Source: a virus
Taxonomy: Duplodnaviria > Heunggongvirae > Uroviricota > Caudoviricetes
Virus record (IMG/VR): IMGVR_UViG_2657244986_000004
Strand: one strand, 5' to 3'
Length of the DNA: 5,546 nt
In this document: positions 1,317 to 5,546 of the stretch, piece after piece
How positions within the stretch are numbered: position 1 is the first letter of the stretch
Layout of the letters: every line of letters begins with the position of its first letter
Notes under the pieces: model-generated
Seen by the model: only the letters and a program-made list of their open reading frames with translations
Told to the model about the DNA's origin: nothing
The model's database searches: none
Position numbers and translations under genes: made by a program

Positions 1317-1576
1317 GTGATCGTGTCATTGAATGCGCCTCCAGAGCGGGGCGCGACTTCTCAGAGTTCATGAAAGGCGAGAAGGGCATGATGGAAGCAT
1401 TGGCCTCGGTGGATGAGTTTGGCGAGCAGCTGCGCCTCAACGGCTGTGTCAATCATCACTTTGTTAGCTACATGATGCGGAACTCGATCATGCAGGCATT
1501 CATGGACATGGCAAAAGCCGAGAGGAAAGAAGAGCGCCGGCGTAAGCGAGCGGAAGCAAAAGCAAAAGTGAAGTAG
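1313..1576 (+). CDS. Hypothetical protein (87 aa), translationally coupled to the upstream KilA-N gene
   Basis: The ATG at 1313 overlaps the upstream stop (ATGA at 1313-1316). The C-terminus is highly charged and Lys/Arg-rich (KAERKEERRRKRAEAKAKVK). No family recognised. It could be an independent small gene or the detached C-terminal part of a longer KilA-N protein. Confidence 0.5.
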   Translation: MSDRVIECASRAGRDFSEFMKGEKGMMEALASVDEFGEQLRLNGCVNHHFVSYMMRNSIMQAFMDMAKAERKEERRRKRAEAKAKVK

Positions 1577-1611
1577 CCATTACAAAGCCCATTTACGGGT
1601 GGGCTTGATAA
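1577..1611 (+). repeat. Direct repeat copy A (35 bp), contains a 7-bp stem hairpin
   Basis: CCATTACAAAGCCCATTTACGGGTGGGCTTGATAA, immediately after the stop of the 87-aa ORF. AAGCCCA pairs with TGGGCTT. No T-run follows. It matches copy B at 29 of 35 aligned positions by my hand alignment. Confidence 0.6.
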
Positions 1612-1996
1612 TGAAACCGGAATTTATTCTGGGCCACCAGTTAACGGCAGTACCACGAAACAACCCAAGCCAGTAAGTGGGGAAATAACACTGGCAGCCA
1701 CTGAAAGATGAAGCTCCTGCCTTAAGGCAAAAAAGATTCTTTGTGGTGGCGGACTGATGGAAAGACATCGGTTATTGCAGAGGCCATTCAATGAGTGGTC
1801 TCGACAATGGCTTATACCCTACACGGGATAACTTAACTGATATCCCTTTTAACGGATAAAGGTATTCAAGCCTGACACATCATGCGCTGTATCGTCGCTG
1901 TATTCCCGCATTAACCATGACCGTAGCCCGACGGGGAACACCTTCTGCACGAGTGTGCGGAAAATCAAAGAATTACGAGAACTACTCAATGACTCT

Positions 1997-2030
1997 CCAT
2001 TACAAAGTCTATCTGCGGGGGGCTTGATAA
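1997..2030 (+). repeat. Direct repeat copy B (34 bp), degenerate copy of A
   Basis: CCATTACAAAGTCTATCTGCGGGGGGCTTGATAA. The first 11 nt and last 11 nt are identical to copy A. The hairpin is not conserved. It lies about 60 bp upstream of the 74-aa gene start. Confidence 0.6.
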
Positions 2031-2053
2031 AGGTGCTTTCACCTCGCTTAGCA

Positions 2054-2062
2054 TGGTATGTT
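2054..2062 (+). promoter_or_regulatory. Candidate extended -10 promoter element (TGgTATGTT) for the 74-aa gene
   Basis: TGnTATGTT fits the extended -10 pattern TGnTATAAT. It lies about 28 nt upstream of the ATG at 2090 and just upstream of a GGGAGG Shine-Dalgarno (2080-2085). No convincing -35. Prediction by eye only. Confidence 0.3.
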
Positions 2063-2089
2063 CTGACTACCAACTTTTTGGGAGGACAC

Positions 2090-2314
2090 ATGGAACTGAT
2101 AAATGGACGGCCAGGCAGAGATTTTATAGTGGGAACATATACCTACTCAGAAATTAAAGATCTTAACTTCATGGCTAAGGAAGAGAAAAGAGCTCGTGAA
2201 GAGCTAAAGCATCGGGGTTACGAATTGGCGTATATCAAGGCGGACTCTGAATGTAACGGGATGTTTGTCAGGGCGTACCGGGTCTATACTGACAAAGCGC
2301 CATTTAATGTCTAA
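2090..2314 (+). CDS. Hypothetical small protein (74 aa), first gene of the AT-rich accessory cassette
   Basis: The ATG at 2090 is preceded by a strong SD GGGAGG (2080-2085). The six-frame ORF starts at GTG 1955, but that extension has no RBS and overlaps repeat B. Translation: MELINGRPGRDFIVGTYTYSEIKDLNFMAKEEKRAREELKHRGYELAYIKADSECNGMFVRAYRVYTDKAPFNV. No family recognised. The local sequence is visibly AT-richer than the flanks. Confidence 0.6.
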   Translation: MELINGRPGRDFIVGTYTYSEIKDLNFMAKEEKRAREELKHRGYELAYIKADSECNGMFVRAYRVYTDKAPFNV

Positions 2315-2361
2315 ATATACCTCGGGCGGTTTTTTACGTTCATTACCGTACGCAATTACAG

Positions 2362-2382
2362 CAGGCATTCATTGAGTGCCTG
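2362..2382 (+). promoter_or_regulatory. Intergenic hairpin / inverted repeat between the two cassette genes
   Basis: CAGGCA (2362-2367) pairs with TGCCTG (2377-2382), 9-nt loop. No T-run follows, so it is not a classic terminator. Possible operator or RNA-processing element. A -35/-10-like pair (TTATCA ... TATTCT) lies just downstream at about 2393-2420. Confidence 0.3.
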
Positions 2383-2449
2383 TGATAATGATTTATCAAC
2401 GTGCTTGCAAACGGTATTCTAGACCTCCAATTATCCTAAGGAGGTTTTT

Positions 2450-2854
2450 GTGGTTAAAAATTTAGAATACATGAAGGGGATGCTTGAGGTATTTTTGAAA
2501 GCGAAAACTCCCTTTATATCTACAAAAGACTTAGCTAATGCGGGGTACGATATCTGCTCGAATGAAGGGATGTTTCATTATCTACTTCTTATTGAGCAAG
2601 GTTATATCAGTAATAAAGATCTAATAACGGATGACATAACTAAACTGGGCTACATGCGCCATTGTGGCCATATGCTAGATATGGGTACCGACGTGCGACT
2701 ATCTGCGCAGGGACAAGAATTCGCCCAGGCATTAAATGAACCTACGGTTTTTGAGAAATTAAAGTCAATGAGCGATGCCCCTTTGAGTACAATCAAAGAT
2801 GTTGGGCTGGAGTTAACGAAGGCCTATTTAAAGAAGAAATTTGGCCTCGAGTAA
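2450..2854 (+). CDS. Hypothetical protein (134 aa), second gene of the AT-rich accessory cassette
   Basis: GTG start at 2450 with a near-perfect SD TAAGGAGG (2437-2444) 5 nt upstream. An alternative in-frame ATG is at 2471. AT-rich codon usage. The motif VRLSAQGQEFAQAL loosely resembles the R-L-T-x-x-G-x-E-F-L motif I associate with DUF2513-type phage proteins. That assignment is weak and untested. Confidence 0.65.
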   Translation: MVKNLEYMKGMLEVFLKAKTPFISTKDLANAGYDICSNEGMFHYLLLIEQGYISNKDLITDDITKLGYMRHCGHMLDMGTDVRLSAQGQEFAQALNEPTVFEKLKSMSDAPLSTIKDVGLELTKAYLKKKFGLE

Positions 2855-2914
2855 AATTTCTACCCTCACGAGTTAAGTTGTTTTGTGATGGTTATTCGCA
2901 ATGAATATCTCTAG

Positions 2915-2941
2915 CCACTGGCATTTGCTGGTGGTTTTTTT
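2915..2941 (+). terminator. Rho-independent terminator closing the AT-rich cassette
   Basis: CCACTGG (2915-2921) pairs with CTGGTGG (2928-2934), 7 bp including two G-U wobbles, loop CATTTG. It is followed by a seven-T run at 2935-2941. Confidence 0.5.
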
Positions 2942-3041
2942 ATGCGCATCCCTCGCGCACCACAAAGGGAGTCTTTCAGTAGTGATTCGTAACCGGCTCA
3001 TTTAAACCGTCTGGTCTGTTTCCTCCGGCTCTACAAAAATA

Positions 3042-3719
3042 ATGTCCATCATTTTTAATGGACACTATCGTATGAAACACCGGACCTGGATCACTGAAGC
3101 TTTACGTCTTCACTTTGAAGAACATTTACCCCGGGTTGTGGCCGGGCGTCGCCTGGGTGTACCAAAATCAACAGTTTGTAGTATGTTCGTGCGCTTTCGG
3201 AGAGCTGGCCTTTCGTGGCCTTTGCCCGCAGGCATGTCGGAGCAGGAACTTGATGCCTGCCTTTACGGACAATTTTCCACGGTACCAGTCGTACGTCCTG
3301 AAAGCACCGTTATATCCGAAGCCCCCGTGGTAAAAAAACGTCCCCGGCGGCCCAACTTCCCTTATGAGTTTAAAATCGCCTTAGTGGAGCAGTCACTGCA
3401 GCCCGGAGCCTGTGTGGCGCAGATCGCCCGGGAAAACGGAATCAACGATAACCTGCTCTTCAACTGGCGCCATCAATACCGGAAAGGTGGCCTGCTGCCT
3501 TCCGGAAAAAATATGCCGGCACTGCTTCCCGTGACGTTAACGCCGGAGCCGGATAATAAAATCCCGGCCCCCGCACAGGAACCAGAGCAGATAAATACAC
3601 CGTCCGACAGTCTGTGTTGTGAGCTGGTTCTGCCGGCCGGAACTCTCAGGCTTAAAGGTAAACTGACGCCGGCGTTATTACAGACACTTATCCGCGAAAT
3701 AAAAGGGAGCAGCCACTGA
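3042..3719 (+). CDS. tnpA: IS66-family accessory protein TnpA (orf1)
   Basis: A 225-aa ORF. The segment ...PRRPNFPYEFKIALVEQSLQPGACVAQIARENGINDNLLFNWRHQYRKG... matches the helix-turn-helix region of IS66 TnpA proteins as I remember them. The start is ambiguous: ATGs at 3042, 3060, 3072 and 3234 are in frame and none has a clear SD. Confidence 0.8.
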   Translation: MSIIFNGHYRMKHRTWITEALRLHFEEHLPRVVAGRRLGVPKSTVCSMFVRFRRAGLSWPLPAGMSEQELDACLYGQFSTVPVVRPESTVISEAPVVKKRPRRPNFPYEFKIALVEQSLQPGACVAQIARENGINDNLLFNWRHQYRKGGLLPSGKNMPALLPVTLTPEPDNKIPAPAQEPEQINTPSDSLCCELVLPAGTLRLKGKLTPALLQTLIREIKGSSH

Positions 3720-4066
3720 TGATATCTCTCCCTGCAGGTTCGCGTATCTGGCTGGTTGCAGGTATCACCGATATGCGAAATGGCTTTAACGGCCTGGCAT
3801 CAAAAGTTCAGAACGTCCTGAAGGATGACCCGTTCTCCGGACACCTGTTCATCTTCCGCGGACGCCGGGGTGACCAGATAAAAGTGTTGTGGGCTGACAG
3901 TGACGGACTGTGCCTCTTCACCAAACGCCTGGAGCGGGGCCGCTTCGTCTGGCCAGTCACCCGTGACGGCAAGGTGCACCTTACTCCGGCTCAGTTATCC
4001 ATGCTTCTTGAAGGTATCAACTGGAAGCACCCGAAACGAACGGAACGCGCTGGAATCCGCATATAA
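3719..4066 (+). CDS. tnpB: IS66-family TnpB (orf2)
   Basis: A 115-aa protein, MISLPAGSRIWLVAGITDMRNGFNGLASKVQNVLKDDPFSGHLFIFRGRRGDQIKVLWADSDGLCLFTKRLERGRFVWP..., the hallmark IS66 Orf2 sequence pattern. The ATG at 3719 overlaps the tnpA stop by 1 nt. Confidence 0.9.
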   Translation: MISLPAGSRIWLVAGITDMRNGFNGLASKVQNVLKDDPFSGHLFIFRGRRGDQIKVLWADSDGLCLFTKRLERGRFVWPVTRDGKVHLTPAQLSMLLEGINWKHPKRTERAGIRI

Positions 4067-4085
4067 CCCGTTGTAAAGTGAGGAT

Positions 4086-5546
4086 ATGGACACCTCACTT
4101 GCTCATGAGAACGCCCGCCTGCGGGCACTGTTGCAGACGCAACAGGACACCATCCGCCAGATGGCTGAATACAACCGCCTGCTCTCACAGCGGGTGGCGG
4201 CTTATGCTTCCGAAATCAACCGGCTGAAGGCGCTGGTTGCGAAACTGCAACGTATGCAGTTCGGTAAAAGCTCAGAAAAACTTCGTGCAAAAACCGAACG
4301 GCAGATACAGGAAGCACAGGAGCGAATCAGCGCACTTCAGGAAGAAATGGCGGAAACGCTGGGTGAGCAATATGACCCGGTACTGCCATCCGCCCTGCGC
4401 CAGTCTTCAGCCCGTAAACCGTTACCGGCCTCACTTCCCCGTGAAACCCGGGTTATCCGGCCGGAAGAGGAATGCTGTCCTGCCTGTGGTGGTGAACTCA
4501 GTTCTCTGGGATGTGATGTGTCAGAGCAACTGGAGCTTATCAGCAGCGCCTTTAAGGTTATCGAAACACAACGTCCGAAACAGGCCTGTTGCCGGTGCGA
4601 CCATATCGTGCAGGCACCAGTACCTTCAAAACCCATTGCACGCAGTTATGCCGGAGCGGGGCTTCTGGCCCATGTTGTCACCGGGAAATATGCAGACCAT
4701 CTGCCGTTATACCGCCAGTCAGAAATATACCGTCGTCAGGGAGTGGAGCTGAGCCGTGCCACACTGGGGCGCTGGACAGGTGCTGTTGCTGAACTGCTGG
4801 AGCCGCTGTATGACGTCCTGCGCCAGTATGTGCTGATGCCCGGTAAAGTCCATGCTGATGATATCCCCGTCCCGGTCCAGGAGCCGGGCAGCGGTAAAAC
4901 CCGGACAGCCCGGCTGTGGGTCTACGTCCGTGATGACCGTAACGCCGGTTCACAGATGCCCCCGGCGGTCTGGTTCGCGTACAGTCCGGACCGGAAAGGT
5001 ATCCATCCACAAAATCACCTGGCCGGTTACAGCGGTGTGCTTCAGGCCGATGCTTACGGTGGTTACCGGGCGTTATACGAATCCGGCAGAATAACGGAAG
5101 CCGCGTGTATGGCTCATGCCCGGAGAAAAATCCACGATGTGCATGCAAGAGCGCCCACCTACATCACCACGGAAGCCCTGCAGCGTATCGGTGAACTGTA
5201 TGCCATCGAGGCAGAGGTCCGGGGCTGTTCAGCAGAACAGCGTCTGGCGGCAAGAAAAGCCAGAGCCGCGCCACTGATGCAGTCACTGTATGACTGGATA
5301 CAGCAACAGATGAAAACACTGTCGCGTCACTCAGATACGGCAAAAGCGTTCGCATACCTGCTGAAACAGTGGGATGCACTGAACGTGTACTGCAGTAATG
5401 GCTGGGTGGAAATCGACAACAACATCGCAGAGAACGCCTTACGGGGAGTGGCCGTAGGCCGGAAAAACTGGATGTTCGCGGGTTCCAACAGCGGTGGTGA
5501 ACATGCGGCGGTGTTGTACTCGCTGATCGGCACATGCCGTCTGAAC
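4086..5546 (+). CDS. tnpC: IS66-family transposase TnpC (orf3), 3'-partial (continues beyond the window)
   Basis: My own translation from the ATG at 4086 is open in frame for 487 codons to the last base of the window; an in-frame TAA at 4074-4076 precedes it. It is absent from the ORF track only because it has no stop in the window. N-terminal leucine-zipper-like region ([25 protein letters not shown]...), a Cys cluster (CPACGGEL...CCRCDH), then the transposase core (...[23 protein letters not shown]...[29 protein letters not shown]...). Confidence 0.9.

Follow-up and report, generated by a model that had tools for sequence, protein, structure and literature searches.

The stretch of DNA analyzed here, hereafter the window, comprises 5,546 nucleotides (nt) of the IMG/VR virus record IMGVR_UViG_2657244986_000004. 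By its gene content and its Pfam and PHROG matches, it is the late region of a lambda-like Escherichia coli prophage. It carries two small co-directional open reading frames (ORFs), which we call ORF74 and ORF134 after the number of amino acids (aa) that they encode. We propose that they are two independent single-gene accessory modules, brought together by chance in the hypervariable stretch that runs from the lysis genes to cos and terminase. We give this reading a probability of about 65%. Each module would consist of a conserved hairpin of ~43 nt, a leader of ~55 nt with a strong Shine-Dalgarno (SD) site and one small gene, and phages trade modules at or beside the hairpins. Both genes would most likely be transcribed late, as part of the Q-antiterminated late transcript, with a possible weak contribution of their own promoters in the lysogen. 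ORF134 would act as a nucleic-acid-binding winged-helix factor and ORF74 as a protein binder, neither of them requiring the other. Their independence is suggested because diverged relatives of the two never co-occur, because the slot is interchangeable, because the homology breakpoints fall at the hairpins, and because an IS100 element splits the pair in the E. coli genome CT282. The two genes are the following:

2090-2314, + strand: ORF74, a cytoplasmic alpha/beta protein of PHROG 6100 (ATG start, 74 aa)
2450-2854, + strand: ORF134, a winged-helix protein of the divergent DUF2513/PHROG 585 type, WP_000240372.1, annotated as "hypothetical protein" (GTG start, 134 aa)

Distribution of the two gene families

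ORF74 and ORF134 were each detected in 36 of 5426 complete E. coli genomes. The 36 genomes are the same for both, and the identity is at least 99%. With the exception of CT282, the two genes are adjacent in these genomes, and the block that they form is found in at least three different prophage backgrounds. We also ran profile searches over every ORF of the loci that we fetched (designated below by L numbers). No locus held both families unless it was a copy of a single E. coli block, with an identity of 99% or more.

The diverged homologues occur singly. Sixteen loci hold a relative of ORF134 only, at identities from 96% down to ~27%: Citrobacter (96%), L022 (86%), L023-L033 (47-55%), and one Yersinia and one Klebsiella phage. 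Another 14 hold a relative of ORF74 only, at 83% down to 55% identity, namely L045-L050 (81-83%), L042, L043, L179 and L180 (~68%) and loci from Citrobacter and Raoultella (55-59%). None of these 30 loci holds both genes, two of them (L047 and L048) being uninformative since their contigs end just past the gene. Whatever the type of terminase, both families are always located between the lysis genes and the terminase. Moreover, the ORF134 relative of L026 and the ORF74 relative of L042 precede related genes of 66-69 aa and 211-212 aa, which indicates that the two families occupy an interchangeable slot.

The original prediction, made from the letters of the window, had proposed a survey of homologous prophages for the pair, and had named a pair never seen together outside this genome as an outcome that would speak against a joint system. 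The pair does recur elsewhere, only as copies of one near-identical block, which comes close to that outcome.

In CT282 (L181, NZ_CP095798.1 3274559-3277282), an IS100 element (istA, istB) lies between ORF74 and ORF134, which are thus separated by a gap of ~2.1 kilobases (kb). After this insertion, the Prokaryotic Genome Annotation Pipeline (PGAP) calls a shortened ORF134.

Hairpin elements and homology breakpoints

A ~43-nt element of the form GCATTACA-stem-loop-stem-(T/C)GATAATG is present in three exact-motif copies on the + strand of the window, where 0.035 would be expected, and a fourth copy was found by a covariance model. The four copies are listed with their covariance-model scores and folding energies:

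1574-1616, + strand: hairpin copy 1, directly after the 87-aa gene (60.2 bits, E = 1.4e-12; -17.0 kcal/mol, z = -4.6)
1769-1812, + strand: hairpin copy 2, diverged (36.3 bits, E = 3e-6; -23.3 kcal/mol, z = -6.1)
1994-2035, + strand: hairpin copy 3, at the left edge of the ORF74 module (46.8 bits, E = 5e-9; weak fold of -8 kcal/mol, z = -0.45)
2350-2393, + strand: hairpin copy 4, at the left edge of the ORF134 module (52.4 bits, E = 1.7e-10; -17.2 kcal/mol)

Three of the four copies fold into an outer stem of 4-8 base pairs (bp), a constant 2x2 internal loop (CA/GA) and an inner stem of 9-10 bp, at -17 to -23 kcal/mol and z of -4 to -6, copy 3 being the weak one. In an alignment of 29 distinct copies, which was fitted to the covariance model and is hence biased towards structure, 96% of the cells are paired and compensatory changes are seen in nine of ten pairs. 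The covariation score is 0.58, versus 0.21 for shuffles and at most 0.125 for slid registers. Copy 4 folds at -17.2 kcal/mol in the sense strand and at -11.0 kcal/mol in the antisense strand, owing to G-U pairs. In ~290 kb of gene-anchored loci, all hairpin matches below E = 1e-4 lie on the gene strand, and the located copies typically end ~55 nt ahead of the start codon of the small gene.

The breaks in homology between the window and related loci coincide with these elements. Homology with L067 and L069 ends at 1613-1614, that is at hairpin 1, and homology with L001, L067, L088 and L108 begins at 1793-1795, at hairpin 2. At hairpin 3 (1997-1998) begins the homology with L002 (the O104:H4 prophage), L011, L049 and L045, and at hairpin 4 (2355-2365) that with L005, L021, L022 and L004. 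Two modules are thereby delimited: module A, from 1997 to ~2336, comprises hairpin 3 and ORF74 and is found alone in L049, and module B, 2355-2985, comprises hairpin 4, ORF134 and the terminator and is found alone in L005 and L021. In a Klebsiella phage, a hairpin that is 97% identical precedes a DUF2513 gene only 30% identical to ORF134. To judge from these alignments, module exchange between phages evidently takes place at or beside the hairpins.

Between hairpins 1 and 2 lies a segment of 180 bp (1614-1794) with no convincing ORF on the + strand. L067 is devoid of this segment and has a single hybrid hairpin in its place.

The hairpin extends well beyond the loci of the two genes. Phage records with BLAST matches to the element types number 146, 22 and 7, among them those of P22-like phages such as ST64T, HK620 and Stx2 phages, and the element is also present in L001, L004, L005, L021, L022, L042-L050, L055-L126, L173 and L174. 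In a motif-anchored sample of IMG/VR, 17 of 80 loci were confirmed by the covariance model, the bare-motif scan yielding mostly chance matches. Where both flanks of a motif-anchored locus were recognized, the hairpin lies between the lysis genes and the terminase. None of the 17 confirmed loci carries a relative of ORF74 or ORF134, which rules out the hairpin as a dedicated operator of ORF134. It was not found in lambda or in the searched part of 933W, so that it is not a universal lambdoid feature either. No Rfam family matched, the best value being E = 0.49 for the whole window and E of at least 3.1 for 1550-2460.

Two further roles were considered and rejected. As an intrinsic terminator, the element would be expected to carry a T run, but its stems are followed by GATAATG and the terminator scan is silent. 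As a promoter, its ATTACA and GATAAT do resemble -35 and -10 boxes, but the spacer between them measures 21-25 nt. We would rather speculate that the hairpins may be RNA processing or stabilizing signals.

ORF134, a divergent member of the DUF2513 family

ORF134 is a real gene under purifying selection, with a ratio of nonsynonymous to synonymous substitution rates (dN/dS) of ~0.08-0.09 against its 96% and 87% identical homologues. It is a divergent DUF2513 winged-helix protein. The profile of PHROG 585, a family labeled "unknown function", aligns with it from position 1 to position 127 out of 128 (E = 3e-31). The Klebsiella phage protein QBP07719, with which it shares 30% identity (E = 1e-5), scores 47.7 bits on PF10711 (DUF2513) for a cut-off of 29.6, and 61 of the 82 relatives of ORF134 collected by profile search match PF10711 at E <= 0.01. 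The structural model of ORF134 is a winged helix-turn-helix (HTH) with C-terminal helices. Across the 82 relatives, G88 never varies, and F42, H43 and R83 hardly do. It could be that the protein binds nucleic acid via its recognition helix (F42, H43) and its wing (R83), as a dispensable regulator or as a DNA/RNA-binding accessory factor, and we would give this proposal even odds.

Searches for better known relatives brought little. The NCBIfam and PADLOC scans returned no match for ORF134, and searches of PDB sequences, with single families as well as with the 82-member profile, gave chance matches only. A scan of genome contigs returned two loci, one of which is spurious (Patescibacteria, 36 residues matched). 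No relevant publication came up in literature searches on DUF2513, PF10711, phrog_585, WP_000240372 or the hairpin sequences. It had been stated that neither protein of the pair could be recognized as a member of a characterized family: both are indeed uncharacterized, but the membership of ORF134 in the catalogued DUF2513 family had been missed. ORF134 extends this winged-helix family to a subgroup that lies under the Pfam threshold and is consistently located between lysis and packaging genes.

In two Citrobacter loci (L005 1676-3456 and L021 6619-8399), the 96% identical ORF134 is followed by genes of 112 aa and 485 aa and not by a terminase. By eye, the N-terminus of the 485-aa product looks like a family-2 glycosyltransferase.

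ORF74, a gene omitted by annotation

ORF74 is likewise a real gene under purifying selection, its dN/dS being ~0.11 against a 69% identical homologue, at which synonymous sites are near saturation. It matches PHROG 6100 with E = 1.4e-54 over 74 of 74 profile positions. This family, narrow and enterobacterial, also bears the label "unknown function". In none of the 36 complete E. coli genomes with ORF74 does the RefSeq/PGAP annotation include the gene. Here is thus a conserved and selected gene that the NCBI pipeline has missed, including in the 2011 O104:H4 outbreak strain.

No significant match to ORF74 was obtained in the Pfam, NCBIfam (0) and PADLOC (0) scans. DUF2560 (PF10834) was tried on the grounds that it is the small gene that precedes the DUF2513 gene in the Klebsiella phage of L004, and was rejected (hhalign probability 0.4%, no Pfam match). 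The most likely mode of action of ORF74 is to bind a protein, either of the host or of the phage.

A protein of 60 aa (P0017) has a C-terminal half nearly identical to residues 44-74 of ORF74 and an unrelated N-terminus, which by eye resembles an HTH of the Cro/YdaS type. P0017 is apparently a recombinant that cuts ORF74 in mid-gene.

Expression signals

The signals recognized around the two genes are the following:

2054-2062, + strand: candidate extended -10 element, TGgTATGTT, read from the sequence and unproven
2080-2085, + strand: SD site of ORF74, GGGAGG (anti-SD duplex -10.2 kcal/mol, second strongest in the window)
2437-2444, + strand: SD site of ORF134, TAAGGAGG (anti-SD duplex -12.7 kcal/mol, strongest in the window)
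2913-2941, + strand: intrinsic terminator, 10-bp stem (2913-2936) followed by T7 (terminator scan and fold)

With the remaining seven gene starts of the window at anti-SD energies of -1.7 to -7.8 kcal/mol, the earlier description of two co-directional ORFs at 2090-2314 and 2450-2854 with the strongest ribosome-binding sites of the window proved correct. So did that of a hairpin and T7 terminator downstream: the 10-bp stem was found by the scan, and it folds at -13.9 kcal/mol (z = -3.3). It is the sole + strand terminator that the scan found in 1500-3100, none being detected between ORF74 and ORF134, and in relatives free of the insertion sequence (IS) it is the last signal ahead of cos.

The promoter proposed upstream of ORF74 fared less well. 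The extended -10 sequence can be read at 2054-2062, but no + strand promoter was called at this place by the promoter scan at its threshold, and the element stays a candidate. Seven aligned leaders of ORF74 homologues lend it weak support, as all of them conserve the T, the A and the final T of its hexamer. For ORF134, we could only discern by eye an 8/12 match, TTATCA-16-TATTCT. The orientation of both genes is that of the late operon, so their expression most likely comes from its Q-antiterminated transcript, in the late phase of lytic growth. In the lysogen, they might in addition be transcribed from weak promoters of their own.

Genomic setting

The neighboring features of the window are the following:

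159-617: Rz (Phage_lysis match, E = 2e-39)
819-1316: KilA-N/ORF11CD3 gene
1313-1576: 87-aa gene
2989-5546, + strand: IS66-family insertion sequence, partial in the window (Pfam domains; homology stops at 2988)

The IS was identified by Pfam matches to HTH_Tnp_1, TnpB_IS66 (4.7e-40), DDE_Tnp_IS66 (3.4e-103), zf-IS66 and LZ_Tnp_IS66, and the alignments to uninterrupted genomes end at 2988, just before it. The pair had been placed between the lysis module and this IS66 element. The element is there, but Rz is not the direct neighbor on the other side: the KilA-N gene, the 87-aa gene and 513 bp without a convincing ORF, which separate the 87-aa gene from ORF74, intervene. What lies downstream in IS-free relatives is cosN and nu1, and ORF74 and ORF134 are there the final genes ahead of a lambda-type cos site and nu1. 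L008 represents the same prophage type without the IS, with a lambda-type cosN (GGGCGGCGACCT) ~130 bp past the terminator and nu1 ~400 bp past ORF134. In annotated complete genomes, the ORF74-ORF134 block lies between the lysis genes and the gene for the small terminase subunit, and an antitermination gene, a holin and a lysozyme gene are found upstream on the same strand.

The AT-richness that had been noted for the segment, relative to the lysis genes and the IS, was borne out. Its GC content is 40.9% over 2054-2941, versus 50.6% in the phage part (1-1576) and 55.4% in the IS. The GC content at third codon positions is 0.43-0.45, versus 0.54-0.67 in the flanks.

The IS66-family element is inserted downstream of the last terminator and ~78 bp ahead of cosN, at a point that corresponds to 2488/2489 of L008. 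In the window, it splits the lysis region from the packaging genes. Positions 819-1576, with the KilA-N/ORF11CD3 and 87-aa genes, form a module ~90% identical to hkbK-hkbL of HK620 (L173). This module is absent in ST64T, in which the hairpin comes directly after Rz.

Discussion

Several points weigh against our proposal of two independent modules. Within E. coli, ORF74 and ORF134 always travel together, and a functional link between them may have been acquired recently. ORF134 itself gives no PF10711 match at E <= 1 and falls below every Pfam threshold. Its family is acidic (median isoelectric point of 5.35, with 66 of 82 members below 6), an uncommon property among DNA-binding regulators, so that the protein may instead bind other proteins. 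Our searches found no solved structure or characterized relative for either protein, so that functional statements on both are weak. Finally, the late-operon expression rests on lambda biology.

One would wonder whether the two genes could form a single two-component accessory system, a toxin-neutralizer or exclusion pair expressed from the prophage as a moron, as the original prediction had speculated. The two genes are close together and point the same way, their ribosome-binding sites are strong and they share a terminator downstream. In the 36 E. coli genomes they are always adjacent and nearly invariant, bar one IS insertion. We nevertheless regard such a system as very unlikely. Diverged homologues never co-occur, 16 loci having the ORF134 family only and 14 the ORF74 family only; the genes are separate homology modules; an IS100 between them is tolerated in CT282; and no PADLOC or NCBIfam model matches either protein. 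The pair is therefore not worth prioritizing for defense or toxin screens. Another hypothesis would be an anti-defense operon of the anti-CRISPR (acr) and anti-CRISPR-associated (aca) type, with ORF134 as winged-helix autoregulator and a variable small gene upstream, here ORF74, as effector. This could account for a constant ORF134 family behind an upstream gene that varies, from ORF74 in E. coli to unrelated 62-67-aa genes in Citrobacter (L005/L021), a 116-aa gene in L022 and a DUF2560 gene in the Klebsiella phage of L004. It could also account for the inverted repeat (hairpin 4) upstream of ORF134. However, in at least five loci (L023-L026 and L033) the ORF134 relative comes directly after Rz with no small gene between them, and ORF74 relatives exist without any ORF134 relative. 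The hairpins of the 17 motif-anchored loci, which have no ORF134 relative, tell against a specific operator. A late-operon position is also atypical for early-acting anti-defense genes, and the acidity of the ORF134 family does not favor an autoregulator. An operon of this kind thus seems to us distinctly improbable.

ORF134 could also be thought of as a DNA-packaging accessory that binds near cos or pac and aids the terminase, given its place ahead of the packaging genes. It adjoins, however, terminases that are unrelated to one another (Nu1/GpA, Terminase_2, HNH + P27-type), most related phages lack it (lambda, 933W and HK620 among them), and in Citrobacter it is a glycosyltransferase-like gene, and not a terminase, that comes after it. 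Besides, accessory genes of all sorts end up in this slot. We hardly believe in a packaging role.

Returning to the proposal of two independent modules, its soberest form is that the sequence features are real and the biology ordinary, that is, two hypothetical phage proteins which databases already list, in an accessory slot already known, and no new system. A far bolder extension, which we rate as rather unlikely, is that the hairpins would punctuate, as a dedicated signal, the region from the lysis genes to the terminase in enterobacterial phages of the P22-like and lambda-like kinds. They would combine a role as RNA structures, for instance in RNase III-type processing or stabilization of the late transcript, with a repeat homology used by recombinases to swap single-gene modules. 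ORF74 and ORF134 would then be plug-in cargo, possibly counter-defense or host-modulating, in a system of cassette exchange still lacking a formal description. Be that as it may, this hairpin punctuation is a more interesting lead than the genes themselves.

Comparison with known systems

A parallel can be drawn with the lambdoid morons, of which bor is an example. The definition of a moron is said to go back to Juhala et al. in 2000. Lambda bor is transcribed from its own promoter in the lysogen, against the direction of the late operon, and occupies what we take to be the same slot, at the right end of the lambda chromosome. ORF74 and ORF134 share with such morons this right-end position, a lower GC content than the flanks, a terminator of their own and the character of extra DNA absent from close relatives: in L088, L126, L074 and L067, what follows Rz or the 87-aa gene is a hairpin and then sequence leading towards the terminase, without either gene. 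In contrast to bor, they are co-directional with the late operon, have a candidate promoter only and make up two single-gene modules instead of one unit. The earlier view of the segment as a horizontally acquired moron thus holds as far as extra AT-rich DNA with a terminator in the classical slot is concerned, and fails as to one compact functional pair.

For ORF134, the closest known group is DUF2513 (PF10711)/PHROG 585, given its full-length PHROG 585 match, the PF10711 matches of its relatives and its winged-helix model. The ORF134 of the window nonetheless stays under every Pfam threshold, and since no characterized member or structure was found, membership gives no function.

The closest known arrangement is that of HK620, where hkbK-hkbL-hkbM-hkbN lie between Rz and gene 3. 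The order is the same, with Rz, a KilA-like gene, a gene of ~85 aa, hairpins, small genes and terminase, and positions 746-1860 of the window are 90% identical to HK620. In this slot, however, HK620 has a DUF2560 gene (hkbM) and hkbN, and not ORF74 and ORF134.

Finally, short conserved "boundary sequences" have long been proposed for the exchange of lambdoid modules, an idea cited in PMC3029335. The likeness lies in repeated sequences of ~43 nt at gene boundaries that coincide with homology breakpoints. The elements of the window differ from such boundary sequences in being hairpins with compensatory stem changes and with G-U pairs in the sense strand only. These two properties argue for selection on an RNA or single-strand structure and not for mere shared sequence. 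The repeated hairpins of ~40 nt may, speculatively, serve as boundary sequences for module exchange, and the modules that they bound give a concrete and testable way into the question of how small accessory genes are shuffled by lambdoid phages.

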